From Escherichia phage PSD2001, in the sequence record OK254198.1: DNA of 64,000 nucleotides; one strand, written 5' to 3'. Within the stretch, counting starts at the first letter, position 1, and each line of letters opens with the position of its first letter. Under the pieces are notes generated by a model, which saw only the letters and a program-made list of their open reading frames with translations, did no database searches and was not told where the DNA came from. A program made the position numbers and the translations under genes. Positions 23,222-28,319 of this stretch are shown piece by piece.

Positions 23222-23947
23222 ATGAATTATGCTTTAATATATGAGAATTTAATGAACCGAGCCAAATCTAGAAAATTGACTGGATACAAAGAATCTCACC
23301 ATGTTGTTCCTCAATGTTTAGGCGGACCAGATACAAAAGAAAACCGAGTTGATTTAACGCCGGAAGAGCATTATCTAGCACATCAACTATTGGTAAAAAT
23401 TAATCCAGAACATAAAGGATTGAAATATGCTGCCTATATGATGACTATATCACCAGATGGTCGCCGGCAGAATAATAAATTATTCGGTTGGTTAAAGAGA
23501 GATTACTTAAACAATAGAATTCAATCATCCGGAATGAAAGGGAAAAAGCATAAACCCAAATCAATTCAATTGATGAAAGATAAACGTGCTCTCCAAAAAA
23601 TCACCGAAACAACTAAAGCCAAAATATCTAAAACAAAAACTGGCGTAAAATTTACAAAAGAAGCACTAAAATCATTTAATGAAAAACGTTCCGCAAACCA
23701 AGCATGGATTGATTCCAATTTTAGGCCATGTAAAGAAAGCACCAAATCTAAAATTGGTGATGCCAATAGGGGTCGTGTTTTTGATAAAAAGACCTGCCCT
23801 CATTGTGGTAAAACTGGAGCAGGTCCTAATATGAAACGGTATCATTTTGATAATTGCAAATCAAAAGTCGCCAAATGCAACCTGCCAGCATTCAACACCA
23901 ATATGACGCCACATCTCGACAACGTTTTGCCTATCGTCAACGGCTAA
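23222..23947 (+). CDS. free-standing HNH homing endonuclease (Mob-like)
   Basis: HNH core [29 protein letters not shown]; basic repeat-rich middle; C-terminal CPHCGK...C..C; start trimmed to [10 protein letters not shown] with GAGGA RBS; only plus-strand gene in a long minus-strand block. Confidence 0.8.
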
Positions 23948-24763
23948 TTTCACATCATAATGTGGAGCAATTTTGTTCCAGAAAATTTCTTCCTTCACAA
24001 TATCATCTTTACGGTCGTCACCTTGCTCGCGCTGGATATGAGTTTCCCAAGGAATTCCATACTTATCCATCCAGGCTTTGGTGGCTTCATAATATTCCGT
24101 TGGGTTTTCTTCAGTACCGGATTCGCGTCCAGATACTGTGATAATACTATACCCTGCGTGATGAAGCATTTTCAGGTACTGAACAACCATTTTGTTTGGC
24201 GCATCAGTAGACAGTTTTGCAAGCTCAAATGGCCCACGAGCCACATGCAAAGCCAATGTTCCATCCAGGTCAAAGATAATGGCTTTTGGTTGACCAGGAG
24301 TTCCTTTATAAACCGGAAGACCAAGGAAGGTACGCATATGACCATACATGGAACGAAGAACATCAATTGGTACCGCTTTTGGACCACGGCGATTGTTGCG
24401 TTTAACCAGTTCAGTCCAAGGAACATCAAATACTTTATATTCAACTTTCCAATTGTGTTCTTTAGCAAAGGTTTCCCACATCAAACGACGTTCAGGATTC
24501 AAGTTGGTGTCTGAAATAATCACACCTTTAACTGAATCGCCGCCATACAAAATACCCTTCGCTGCATCAAACTGCATACAGGTAACGATGCCTTCTTTCT
24601 TCTTAGAGTATTTGTATTCATCACGGGCTTCATGACCCATAATGGATTGACGATAATCATCGCGGTTAATGTTAAAATAGCCAGGGTTCTTAGCGATGAA
24701 TTCACGAGTCCATGTGCTCTTACCAGAACCAGGGCAACCAATAGTCAAAATAATCTTTTTCAT
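23861..24763 (-). CDS. pseT: polynucleotide 5'-kinase / 3'-phosphatase
   Basis: 300 aa; Walker [10 protein letters not shown]; HAD motif IIFDLDGTL; near-identical to remembered T4 Pnk. Confidence 0.95.
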
Positions 24764-25083
24764 AATTTAATTCCCAACAGAGTTTTGAGGAGCTGAATGC
24801 GTAATTCAACACGCCCTTCATTTAGTTCCGCTACTGCCTTATTGTCGGACTTGCGGCGAGTATTAGCGGAGATGAACATAATCAAATGCTCTTTAAGTTC
24901 CCGCATATCAACACCTTGGGCTTTAGCTGCTTTACGCAAGGCTTTACCGGCATCATCCAGCGCTTTTGCGGGGTCTTCATCATTCAATACCAATCCGCGG
25001 TCCAAATCCAAATATACAGCGCCGCGACATGAATCAATATAATTGTCTGAACACTTGATGTAATTCTCTAATAACTCTTTCAT
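24760..25083 (-). CDS. hypothetical protein (pseT.1 region)
   Basis: 107 aa track ORF, ATGA overlap with pseT. Confidence 0.5.
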
Positions 25084-25562
25084 ACGCCAAGCTCCTTATA
25101 AAGTTCTTCGCGACAGGTTTTAAGGATTTTACCAGTTTCATAAGCATCACTTTCAGAAACATCACCAAGTGCAGCGGCAGATTGCATTTGACCATGGCGT
25201 TTAGCTGCATATTCAAAACTTTTTACTAGCTCACGAATACGTTCTTTTTCATTGTATTCTTCAATAAATTCTGGGTATTCCCAAACAGGTCGCATCATAC
25301 GATACCAATGCTGAATAGTAATATAATTACTTCCATCCAGATTAATAATTTGCGAAGGCTTAATAGCGCCCGGAGCATAAAAAGTTACCTGTCTTACTAC
25401 ATCAATACCGTCCACCATAGCCCAAGCAAAATCAAAAGTTGCCTTCTTTTCAATTGGTGTACTTGCGCAGGACCCTAATTTTAAGAGCTTTTGTAATGCA
25501 GGGGATTTAACACCTGAAATGTATTCAGGATTAGATACAAAAGAATTGTCACGTAAAGTCAT
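25080..25562 (-). CDS. hypothetical protein
   Basis: Track ORF trimmed to MTLRDNSF with GAGGA RBS. Confidence 0.5.
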   Translation of the reverse strand: MTLRDNSFVSNPEYISGVKSPALQKLLKLGSCASTPIEKKATFDFAWAMVDGIDVVRQVTFYAPGAIKPSQIINLDGSNYITIQHWYRMMRPVWEYPEFIEEYNEKERIRELVKSFEYAAKRHGQMQSAAALGDVSESDAYETGKILKTCREELYKELGV

Positions 25563-25589
25563 AATAATTTCCTCAAATTTTATAATCCG

Positions 25590-25630
25590 TGGGAACATTA
25601 TACTCTGCTCCCATGAGTTTGTACACTACT
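25590..25630 (-). promoter_or_regulatory. early promoter cassette
   Basis: Minus strand GTGTACAA, 16 nt, TATAATG, with flanking inverted repeat. Confidence 0.4.
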
Positions 25631-25631
25631 T

Positions 25632-26370: not shown

Positions 26371-26864
26371 AACTTGATGATTACCTCAACAATATCATCC
26401 TGGGATAAACCATTCAGGAGGATGTGATTTGTACTGTCAGATGCTGAAATGCGGAACTGATTACCAACTTCATCCGCCATATCATCCTGGGTCAACACTG
26501 GGTGTTTAATTCCCAGACGGTGTTGAAGTGTCAGGGGTTCAACCACAACATAACAAACACATCCATTGATATGCACATTAGGTTGGGTCTGATTGATGAA
26601 CACTTCTGCATCATATTTAACCAAATGGTTCTTTAAGAAGTCAACCATTTCAGGAACAGATTCATGCAGTGCTTCTTTCCGCTCTTCTGATTTTTTATCA
26701 CGATATTCTTTTTGTTTCGCCTTCAACTTTTTATCGGAGGCGAGTTTTTTCCGCAAGTCAGTCATGAGACCAATTTTCTTGGTCCCTTTATAGACATAAA
26801 TTCCGTCATGACGGTCACCATATTCATTGACAATCATTTCATTTGAAATCAGTTGCATATCCAT
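26361..26864 (-). CDS. alc: Alc (blocks host transcription on cytosine DNA)
   Basis: Track ORF trimmed to MDMQ start with GAGGA RBS, giving 167 aa (T4 Alc 167 aa); position between rnlA and the spanins. Confidence 0.6.
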   Translation of the reverse strand: MDMQLISNEMIVNEYGDRHDGIYVYKGTKKIGLMTDLRKKLASDKKLKAKQKEYRDKKSEERKEALHESVPEMVDFLKNHLVKYDAEVFINQTQPNVHINGCVCYVVVEPLTLQHRLGIKHPVLTQDDMADEVGNQFRISASDSTNHILLNGLSQDDIVEVIIKLCK

Positions 26865-26877
26865 AATATTTTCCTCA

Positions 26878-27111
26878 TTAGTAGCGGTTGTAACCCCGGG
26901 GACCAAAAGAGTTGGCACCCAGGCGTTCATCTTTCTTTTTGGCTCTTGCTCTAAACCCAGAATCACCTGTTTGAGCTTTCAGTTCTTTTAACAATTTGGC
27001 CTTCAGGTCAGTAATGAAACCAATCCGGCGGTCTCCCTTGTAGACATAGATTCCGTCATTACTGTCACCATATGCCTGTGTAACTCTTTCATTTGTAATT
27101 AAGTTTAACAT
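26878..27111 (-). CDS. 77 aa paralog of the Alc N-terminal region
   Basis: ITNERVTQAYGDSNDGIYVYKGDRRIGFITDLKAKL aligns with Alc ISNEMIVNEYGDRHDGIYVYKGTKKIGLMTDLRKKL; own GAGGA RBS and ATG. Confidence 0.55.
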   Translation of the reverse strand: MLNLITNERVTQAYGDSNDGIYVYKGDRRIGFITDLKAKLLKELKAQTGDSGFRARAKKKDERLGANSFGPRGYNRY

Positions 27112-27134
27112 GTTTTAGTCCTCATCAGTAGTTG

Positions 27135-27180
27135 ATGGAACCATTATGTATAGAAAGGAGGGGCTTGTACACCCCTTTTT
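27135..27180 (-). promoter_or_regulatory. early promoter cassette
   Basis: Minus strand GTGTACAA inside hairpin GGGG...CCCC, 16 nt, CATAATG. Confidence 0.4.
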
Positions 27181-27182
27181 TA

Positions 27183-28319
27183 TTATTCAGGAAGGATTAC
27201 TTCCGCTTGGTAGTCCGACGGAATGTAAAGTTTATGATTTTTAAGGAAAACTTTATTGATTTGAGCAATCGTTTGTTCAGTTTCCTGTGGGCGTTGATAG
27301 GTGTTCATTAATACGGAGAACAATCCCGGGTATGGTTTGCACAACTCTTGACCTTTAATCGCAAACTCGCGCCGGTCTTTTCCTGCCAGTTGTTTCTGAG
27401 CATCAAGCAACAATCCCAATGTATTGGACAGATAATCCAGATGCGTTACAGTAAAGGCATTAACTTTTTCGCGAGCATAAGTATCGCCAGTAAACATGGC
27501 AATAACATCATCTGCCCCGCCAGCAACAACAACTTCAAACAGTCGCTCATTATTATTAATGGAGTCTTTAGTATGATGCAGAGCACAATACCATTCTGTT
27601 TTCATCTTGAACTTCTGACCACTTGCCAGCTCATAGACGAAGCCTTCAATCTCTTTCATACCACGAACATTCTCAATGCTCGCCGGGTCATATGCTTCAA
27701 CCAGGAAAGGACGGAGCGCAGCATCTTTGAACAGTTCCTGATAAGGAATATATTCACCAGTTTCATTATGGCGAACGTTCAGTAAAATCAGGTCACGTTC
27801 CAGGTAAGGCAAAACAATGCGGTTGGTTGGTGCAACATATTCCATATTGCATGTATAACCAGCTTCAGTGATTTCAGTTACGCGAGCCCTGAATGCACTG
27901 CGATGCTCTTGTTTAAACACCTGCAAGGATTCAGCAGCTTGGGAGCTTTTGATTGACCCTTTGGATTTAAAGGCGATATTAGTCTGGTCCATATAAGTAG
28001 AAACCAAGCTACCATCAGCTTTTGCAGTAACCAGGACAACCTCATCAAGGTTAAGGTCCATGGTCATTGGATTCTCACCCAGATTAAAGAATTTTTCCAT
28101 AGGACGGGCGGCAATGCGAACTGGACCATTGTCATCCATTTCAAACATAATGCCACGACACTCCAGCGCATCATCAAGAAGCCAATCACTATAGGAAGCA
28201 TAGTTATAGCTAAAGATGCGGAACTTAGTTTCAAATGGAGAAACAAAATCCGTATAGAAAAACTTACCTTTATCGGATTCGGCGCAAAGCTTCATTAAGT
28301 TATCATATAATTCAATCAT
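27183..28319 (-). CDS. rnlA: RNA ligase 1
   Basis: 378 aa; strong similarity to remembered T4 Rnl1 (YRIFSYNYASYSDWLL, ALECRGIMFEMD, KADGSLVS adenylation lysine). Confidence 0.9.
   Translation of the reverse strand: MIELYDNLMKLCAESDKGKFFYTDFVSPFETKFRIFSYNYASYSDWLLDDALECRGIMFEMDDNGPVRIAARPMEKFFNLGENPMTMDLNLDEVVLVTAKADGSLVSTYMDQTNIAFKSKGSIKSSQAAESLQVFKQEHRSAFRARVTEITEAGYTCNMEYVAPTNRIVLPYLERDLILLNVRHNETGEYIPYQELFKDAALRPFLVEAYDPASIENVRGMKEIEGFVYELASGQKFKMKTEWYCALHHTKDSINNNERLFEVVVAGGADDVIAMFTGDTYAREKVNAFTVTHLDYLSNTLGLLLDAQKQLAGKDRREFAIKGQELCKPYPGLFSVLMNTYQRPQETEQTIAQINKVFLKNHKLYIPSDYQAEVILPE

Follow-up and report, generated by a model that had tools for sequence, protein, structure and literature searches.

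A T4-type pseT–rnlA gene block and a syntenic stp homologue in Escherichia phage PSD2001, with a predicted role in tRNA-Lys repair

Gene content and organization of the pseT–rnlA region

The window analysed here, a 64,000-nucleotide stretch from Escherichia phage PSD2001 (OK254198.1), contains a minus-strand gene cluster that runs from the stop codon of pseT to the start codon of rnlA. In the ORF list of the window, the cluster occupies positions 23861-28319 exactly, as reported for this gene pair in the initial annotation, which also correctly named the spanins and alc between the two genes but left out ORF107, ORF160 and the 77-aa alcb (Table 1). With matches this strong to T4 proteins of known structure and to curated Pfam families, chance can be dismissed as the source of the gene identities.

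Table 1. Positions of the genes of the pseT–rnlA region and of the stp homologue in the 64,000-nucleotide window
Feature	Position	Strand	Product	Evidence
MobE-like gene	23222..23947	+	free-standing HNH homing endonuclease	phrog_655
pseT	23861..24763	-	Pnkp (polynucleotide 5'-kinase/3'-phosphatase), 300 aa	PDB 1ltq, Pfam, T4 alignment
ORF107	24760..25083	-	hypothetical protein, 107 aa	phrog_2364
ORF160	25080..25562	-	hypothetical protein, 160 aa	kept in many non-T4 Tevenvirinae
pseT.2	25730..26020	-	o-spanin; lipoprotein, lipobox LVSC	phrog_812
pseT.3	26017..26370	-	i-spanin; N-terminal transmembrane segment and coiled coil	phrog_739
alc	26361..26864	-	inhibitor of host transcription on cytosine DNA, 167 aa	Pfam ALC
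alcb	26878..27111	-	77-aa paralogue of the Alc N-terminus	Pfam ALC, phrog_17715
rnlA	27183..28319	-	RNA ligase 1 (Rnl1/gp63), 378 aa	PDB 2c5u, Pfam, T4 alignment
stp homologue	54978..55058	-	26-aa peptide	tblastn with T4 Stp

Judged by its sequence, the block corresponds to the T4-type delayed-early arrangement cd...pseT-(two small ORFs)-pseT.2-pseT.3-alc-alcb-rnlA-denA-nrdB of Gaprivervirus, and the phage is assigned as a VR7/SP18-like T-even relative among the phages of E. coli and Shigella. Annotated Gaprivervirus genomes, including VR7 (NC_014792), SP18 (NC_014595), TH40 and P479, share 90-96% DNA identity with the region, the best matches being TH40, VR7 and SP18, and the gene order agrees with that of T4, VR7, SP18 and VR20. 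VR7 matches the region gene for gene, with the homing endonuclease, alcb and ORF160 all present, whereas SP18 lacks ORF160. Both VR7 and SP18 already annotate pseT, rnlA, alc and the spanins.

In T4 (NC_000866, 134002-137464), pseT, the o- and i-spanins, alc, rnlA, denA and nrdB are found in the same order and on the same strand. The phage studied here differs from T4 in carrying two unrelated ORFs (107 and 160 aa) instead of pseT.1, an extra paralogue of the alc N-terminus upstream of alc, and an opposite-strand MobE-like HNH homing endonuclease gene in place of cd.5. Neither promoter-like sites (18 versus 16.2 expected) nor terminator-like sites (5 versus 4.5 expected) exceeded chance between positions 23000 and 29000. 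A tRNA scan over the full window found none, and the window therefore contains no phage tRNA-Lys.

Polynucleotide kinase-phosphatase and RNA ligase 1

The pseT product aligns over its full length with T4 Pnkp (structure 1ltq, E=1e-156), shares 228 of 300 residues with T4 Pnkp (76%) and matches the Pfam families HAD_PNKP (8.9e-56, full profile) and AAA_33 (7e-20). All 12 checked residues, essential in T4 Pnkp according to published mutagenesis, are conserved. In the N-terminal P-loop kinase domain, Lys15, Ser16, Asp35, Arg38 and Arg126 are at the same positions as in T4. The C-terminal HAD-type phosphatase domain retains the DxDGT motif (Asp165 and Asp167), which reads IFDLDGT, together with Arg176, Arg213, Asp254, Asp277 and Asp278. 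The protein is recognizable as a T4-type polynucleotide kinase-phosphatase and looks catalytically intact.

Rnl1 likewise aligns end to end with its T4 counterpart (structure 2c5u, E=7.6e-120; 192 of 369 residues identical, 52%) and matches the Pfam families RNA_lig_T4_1 (7e-23) and T4_Rnl1_C (1.6e-41). Each of the 14 ligase residues checked is conserved, among them Lys99 of the KxDG motif, which reads AKADGSL. The nucleotidyltransferase motifs are conserved at Lys99, Arg54, Lys75, Phe77, Gly102, Lys119, Glu159, Glu227, Gly228, Lys240 and Lys242, and the phage shares the catalytic residues of both enzymes with T4. The Rnl1-specific all-helical C-terminal domain, which confers tRNA specificity in T4, is whole (T4_Rnl1_C profile positions 1-122 of 122). 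Rnl1 thus also looks catalytically intact. In close relatives, protein identity reaches 97.7% for Pnkp and 99.7% for Rnl1. The initial description of both proteins as highly conserved suits Pnkp better than Rnl1 because of their different identities to T4; every checked residue is kept in both.

Genes between pseT and rnlA

ORF107 belongs to phrog_2364 (1e-52), a family of unknown function, and is annotated as JS98 ORF217c-like in VR7 and SP18. It occupies the position of T4 pseT.1 but is unrelated to it, with no alignment to T4 PseT.1 in BLASTP. The adjacent ORF160 is given here up to 25562; the ORF list extends it to 25598. Neither protein matched a Pfam family at E<=0.01, and a PADLOC scan of ORF107, ORF160, the HNH gene and ORF180 returned a single weak match, of the HNH gene to a type IV REase (E=0.003). 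As a weaker, separate possibility, this pair of ORFs, which adjoins pseT and is kept in many non-T4 Tevenvirinae, may have a part in RNA repair or counter-defence.

The pseT.2 and pseT.3 products match Rz-like spanin families (phrog_812, 5e-40, and phrog_739, 4.5e-37, respectively) and are 66% identical to T4 PseT.2 and 48% identical to T4 PseT.3 over 117 aa; a Pfam search of PseT.2 gave no matches. The i-spanin begins with MQISNLTAGLMLALVVTAGSGFYL and the o-spanin with MMKSIMAVCLAIGLVSC, in which the lipobox cysteine was read from the translation. The reading frames of the pair share 4 nt, and this arrangement of an i-spanin with a transmembrane segment followed by a lipobox o-spanin is that of a two-component spanin.

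Alc is 56% identical to T4 Alc. Its Pfam ALC match (1.4e-48) begins at residue 35 of the listed 201-aa ORF, which extends to 26966; the gene is taken here to extend to 26864, giving a length of 504 nt that is the same in T4, VR7, SP18 and VR20. The product of alcb matches Pfam ALC over profile positions 3-62 (7e-11) and phrog_17715 (3e-53). Its 234-nt ORF is also present in VR7, SP18 and VR20, and in each pairwise comparison synonymous changes are at least as numerous as non-synonymous changes.

A homing endonuclease gene at the 3' end of pseT

A gene on the opposite strand converges on pseT and reaches 87 nt into its 3' end; the product of this gene matches a homing endonuclease family (phrog_655, 2e-63), is 42% identical to T4 MobE over 125 aa and has an HNH motif readable in its translation. 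Compared with VR20, this gene is contained in a 698-bp insertion (23162-23859) located exactly at the junction between the cd.4 start and the pseT stop. The 3' end of pseT is recoded, with 21 differences in the 107 nt beside the insertion and none in the next 137 nt, and the antisense strand of this recoded tract forms the C-terminal coding sequence of the HNH gene. Ten records from 8 phages carry the cassette at 97-99.9% identity, invariably at the cd.4/pseT locus. VR7 and SP18 annotate the same homing endonuclease gene, while VR20 and most other Gapriverviruses lack the cassette. With its motif, presence/absence polymorphism and flanking divergence, the gene has the features of a free-standing HNH homing endonuclease and provides a small, clean example of putative intronless homing in T-even phages.

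Phage P896, which has a SegD-like gene at the cd.4/pseT junction, shares the recoding of the final ~90-107 nt of pseT. We tentatively suggest that the junction might be a hot spot for competing, unrelated homing endonucleases and that the recoded pseT tract might represent a cleavage-immune target allele, although we consider this somewhat less probable than its negation. If true, homing would move pseT alleles between Gapriverviruses.

A homologue of T4 Stp

In T4, the 26-aa peptide Stp inhibits the type Ic restriction enzyme EcoprrI and unleashes PrrC. A search for an stp homologue elsewhere in the genome, as proposed in the initial annotation, was positive: tblastn with T4 Stp identified a syntenic ORF (E=7.6e-11) one base after the stop of ndd (55060-55509), followed by the ac-position ORF and 52.1 as in T4, where stp (165505-165585) lies in the same ndd-stp-ac slot. 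The neighbouring ac-position ORF showed no significant similarity to T4 Ac. The predicted peptide is identical to T4 Stp at 20 of 26 residues (77%), at 15 of the N-terminal 18 and at all of residues 1-11; the substitutions within the N-terminal part are F12W, Y13H and N15H. All three lie in a functionally sensitive region: activity is reported to depend on the N-terminal 18 residues of T4 Stp, where residues 4-14 hold most of the suppressor mutations (PMC3014915). Both its genomic slot and the conservation of this N-terminal part identify the ORF as a probable Stp.

At least 39 phage records encode exactly this peptide. Since SP18 and DK-13 are among the phages that encode it and their records lack an stp annotation, the finding aids annotation and adds to the known picture the presence of a usually unannotated stp gene. 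Stp-like matches in ~45-kb Salmonella siphophages (E 0.07-0.8) were taken as chance.

Putative tRNA repair and alternative roles of the enzyme pair

The tRNA-repair cluster is already known and belongs to textbook T4 biology. In T4, Pnkp heals and Rnl1 seals tRNA-Lys cut by PrrC, an established pathway, as the initial annotation stated (PMC3014915, review). Gene identity, intact checked residues, synteny and the presence of stp are directly established for the phage described here. As the stp homologue accompanies the pseT/rnlA set, the phage appears to have the full T4 trigger and repair set, comprising all three players of the T4 prr conflict.

We consider it very likely that the cluster represents an intact T4-type pseT/rnlA block with stp, the enzymes of which would repair PrrC-cut tRNA-Lys. 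The Stp homologue would act as an EcoprrI inhibitor and PrrC trigger as in T4, activation of PrrC by the phage's own Stp being a prediction. After cleavage of tRNA-Lys by the host anticodon nuclease PrrC, Pnkp would, by homology with T4, strip the break of its 2',3'-cyclic phosphate and add a phosphate to its 5'-OH, after which Rnl1 would rejoin the anticodon loop. From these similarities we infer that the enzymes are active, that they repair tRNA-Lys in vivo and that prr-type hosts keep the pair under selection. The three substitutions in the N-terminal part of Stp and the 52% identity of Rnl1 to T4 weigh against this reading.

It is plausible that the phage meets anticodon-nuclease hosts, as initially suggested, but retention of the pair alone does not prove such exposure because both enzymes have other roles. 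Pnkp also phosphorylates RegB-cut mRNA ends, which leads to early-transcript decay by RNase E/G and PNPase (PMC3014915), and T4 and VR7 annotate Rnl1 as a tail-fibre attachment catalyst (gp63) too. The pair might thus be kept mainly for these functions, in which case its presence would reveal little about prr-type hosts. The distribution of homologues is consistent with this: 3,049 phage records have Pnkp and 1,825 have Rnl1 (near full length in 2,085 and 1,558, respectively, with hosts ranging from Klebsiella to Streptomyces), and both together in more than 1,500, far above the 740 records for Stp, which are mostly from Escherichia, Salmonella and Shigella phages. However, the phage retains both a syntenic stp homologue that begins like that of T4 and the complete C-terminal domain of Rnl1, and we regard maintenance mainly for other functions as rather unlikely. 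The two readings are also compatible with each other. A literature search for newer roles of Pnkp or Rnl1 against other defence systems found nothing relevant.

Repair of PrrC-cut tRNA-Lys remains our preferred reading and yields a testable prediction for the behaviour of Gapriverviruses on prr+ E. coli. The idea that pseT and/or rnlA are decaying remnants with similarity kept and activity lost, for which the lower T4 identity of Rnl1 is the sole hint, was rejected as highly improbable, as both ORFs are full length and free of frameshifts, the proteins match the T4 structures along their whole length with every checked residue kept, and their identity to relatives fits purifying selection.

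The same heal-and-seal logic for broken RNA ends is used in bacterial Pnkp/Hen1 RNA repair. No Hen1-like gene was recognised here, with ORF107 and ORF160 lacking Pfam matches at the above threshold. The bacterial architecture differs from that of the phage pair: in bacterial Pnkp, a single polypeptide carries the kinase, metallophosphoesterase and ligase, and its partner is the methyltransferase Hen1.

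Identity and integrity of the tRNA-repair genes

The 300-aa pseT product contains the Pfam domains HAD_PNKP (8.9e-56) and AAA_33 (7e-20), aligns end to end with the crystal structure of T4 Pnkp (1ltq, E=1e-156) and is 76% identical to the T4 protein. The 378-aa rnlA product matches RNA_lig_T4_1 (Pfam, 7e-23), the full profile of the Rnl1-specific domain T4_Rnl1_C (1.6e-41) and the structure of T4 Rnl1 (2c5u, E=7.6e-120), and shares 52% identity with T4. Both genes are thus present as stated in the initial annotation, whose description of them as highly conserved suits Pnkp and somewhat overstates the case for Rnl1. 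Positions of the T4 enzymes that we take to be essential from published mutagenesis were mapped through global alignments, and all were conserved in Pnkp (K15, S16, D35, R38, R126, D165, D167, R176, R213, D254, D277 and D278) and in Rnl1 (R54, K75, F77, K99, G102, K119, E159, E227, G228, K240, K242, Y246, D272 and D273). With every checked residue retained, neither gene looks decayed. As the ORF list places pseT at 23861-24763 and rnlA at 27183-28319, the limits proposed for the pair, 23861-28319, coincide precisely with the stop of pseT and the start of rnlA.

Pnkp and Rnl1 form an ordinary pair among phages: of 50,697 phage records, 3,049 carry Pnkp homologues (near full length in 2,085) and 1,825 carry Rnl1 homologues (near full length in 1,558), with hosts ranging from Escherichia and Klebsiella to Aeromonas, Vibrio, Acinetobacter and Streptomyces. 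Stp is detectable in only 740 records.

Stp homologue and the prr conflict

The search for an stp homologue, proposed initially as a check, was successful: T4 Stp matched 54984-55058 by tblastn (E=7.6e-11), and queries with the T4 genes surrounding stp located gene 52, 52.1 and ndd in the window (see table). The stp ORF begins one base past the ndd stop, and its product is identical to T4 Stp at 20 of 26 residues, including all of residues 1-11. The N-terminal 18 residues constitute the functionally important, almost invariant part of Stp, and most suppressor mutations fall at residues 4-14 (PMC3014915). Three substitutions (F12W, Y13H and N15H) lie within this part, which is called almost invariant among T4 relatives; with them, this Stp would still be likely to act on EcoprrI/PrrC. 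At least 39 phage records encode exactly this 26-aa peptide, most often unannotated (as in SP18 and DK-13, both close relatives), and about 440 encode an approximately 80% version; matching records are mostly from Escherichia, Salmonella and Shigella phages. This syntenic, usually unannotated gene is a modest addition to the known biology.

With genes for Stp, Pnkp and Rnl1 all found, the phage has all three T4 players in the prr conflict, a pathway that is established knowledge in T4 (summarized in PMC3014915). By homology with T4, Stp would block the type Ic restriction enzyme EcoprrI, an event that in T4 unleashes the host anticodon nuclease PrrC; Pnkp would heal both ends of the tRNA-Lys cut by PrrC, and Rnl1 would then seal the healed ends. 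What the sequence shows directly is which genes these are, their synteny, the stp gene and the retention of the residues checked; we infer that the two enzymes are active and the pair relevant in vivo. Pnkp also helps to degrade early mRNA cut by RegB (PMC3014915), and Rnl1 is annotated as gp63, a tail-fibre attachment catalyst, in the T4 and VR7 records. Retention of the pair fits exposure to anticodon nucleases but by itself does not prove it; the retained stp strengthens this reading. The initial interpretation is supported, with its ecological part, encounters with anticodon-nuclease hosts, being an inference, and its self-assessment as established biology is apt: the biology is already known and the phage lineage already annotated.

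Homing endonuclease at the pseT 3' end

A second modest addition is the arrangement at the cd.4/pseT junction, where a MobE-like HNH homing endonuclease gene (HEG) is found. Compared with the HEG-less relative VR20, the window contains an insertion of 698 bp (23162-23859), bordered precisely by the start codon of cd.4 on one side and the stop codon of pseT on the other. No stop codon ends the endonuclease ORF within the insert, and it continues for 87 nt on the antisense strand of pseT. The 107 nt of pseT adjoining the insert (23860-23966) carry 21 differences from VR20 (about 20%), the next 137 nt carry none, and the remaining gene differs by a few percent; in HEG-positive VR7 and SP18, the last 90 nt of pseT are 96-99% identical to the window. 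The cassette occurs in 10 records (8 phages) at 97-99.9% identity, and never at a different locus. This pattern is typical for free-standing homing endonucleases with a target in a neighbouring conserved gene, and points to the pseT 3' end as the putative endonuclease target, in which case the recoded tract would be the immune allele. Phage P896 shares the recoded pseT 3' end (98.9%, window 23877-23966); the endonuclease gene at its cd.4/pseT junction is of another, SegD-like type and lies on the minus strand (P896 1018-1737 versus window 23162-23859). Two unrelated endonuclease families appear to share this junction as a hot spot.

Gene block and source lineage

The pair lies in an uninterrupted minus-strand gene block (ORF list, 21000-31000). 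Mechanical ORF calls were too long at the 5' end for cd.4 (22964-23218), ORF160 (25080-25598) and alc (26361-26966), whose starts, based on relatives and profile matches, are 23161, probably 25562, and 26864.

Features of the pseT-rnlA and stp regions in the window
Feature	Coordinates	Strand	Remarks
cd	20644-21225	-	dCMP deaminase
cd.1 to cd.4 homologues	between cd and pseT	-	
HEG	23222-23947	+	MobE-like HNH, 241 aa; phrog_655 2e-63; 42% identical to T4 MobE
pseT	23861-24763	-	
ORF107	24760-25083	-	
ORF160 region	25080-25598	-	172-aa ORF; start probably 25562, giving 160 aa
pseT.2	25730-26020	-	o-spanin
pseT.3	26017-26370	-	i-spanin
alc	26361-26864	-	
alcb	26878-27111	-	77-aa alc fragment
rnlA	27183-28319	-	
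denA	28316-28732	-	
nrdB	28753-29931	-	
nrdA	29970-32225	-	
gene 52	53284-54606		T4 query, tblastn
52.1	54672-54809		T4 query, tblastn
stp homologue	54978-55058	-	26 codons
ndd	55063-55500		T4 query, tblastn

Megablast of 23000-29000 against phage genomes matched 128 records, with the Escherichia phages TH40 (93.8%, full length) and VR7 (89.9%) and with Shigella phage SP18 (95.4%, one gap), all of the genus Gaprivervirus (Straboviridae, Tevenvirinae), as top matches. Deposited annotations of these relatives list pseT, two Rz-like spanins, alc, a second short alc, rnlA and denA in the order of the window, and T4 has the same block backbone. Between cd.2 and cd.3, a 180-aa ORF (21803-22345; JS98 ORF212c-like, phrog_5804) lacks a homologue in the T4 cd-pseT block compared; over its first ~50 residues it is similar to the PHROG annotated 'goF mRNA metabolism modulator' (E=9.8e-9).

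Genes between pseT and rnlA

The spanins and alc lie between the pair as initially described, together with ORF107, ORF160 and alcb, which that description omitted. The hypothetical genes ORF107 (phrog_2364) and ORF160 (phrog_4482) occupy the slot of T4 pseT.1, co-oriented between pseT and the spanins; no similarity was detected between ORF107 and T4 PseT.1. Homologues of ORF160 occur in 259 phage records, chiefly from T4-like phages of Klebsiella, Escherichia and Enterobacter. Among the annotated relatives examined, it lies one gene away from pseT in VR7, VR20 and P896, and no annotated copy is present at the pseT-spanin position in SP18 or T4. Its AF2 model, built from 20 homologues, has high confidence (pLDDT 89.8) and comprises a small alpha/beta domain and a long helical hairpin; structural comparison of the model gave no informative match.

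Directly upstream of full-length alc, alcb is a repeat of ~60 residues from the Alc N-terminus (Pfam ALC, 7e-11) and belongs to a separate PHROG of its own. Its length is the same in VR7, SP18 and VR20, and in each pair compared the synonymous codon changes are at least as numerous as the non-synonymous ones. It may represent a functional short paralogue and not debris.

tRNA genes and regulatory sites

ARAGORN identified no tRNA genes across the 64-kb window; any tRNA genes of PSD2001 would lie beyond it. Within 23000-29000, consensus sites resembling promoters or terminators were not commoner than in shuffled sequence. In the rnlA-alcb gap, 7 nt past the rnlA stop, a GC-rich hairpin (AGGGGTGTACAAGCCCCT, 27159-27176, minus strand) is followed by a T-rich tract and could function as a terminator or RNA processing structure.
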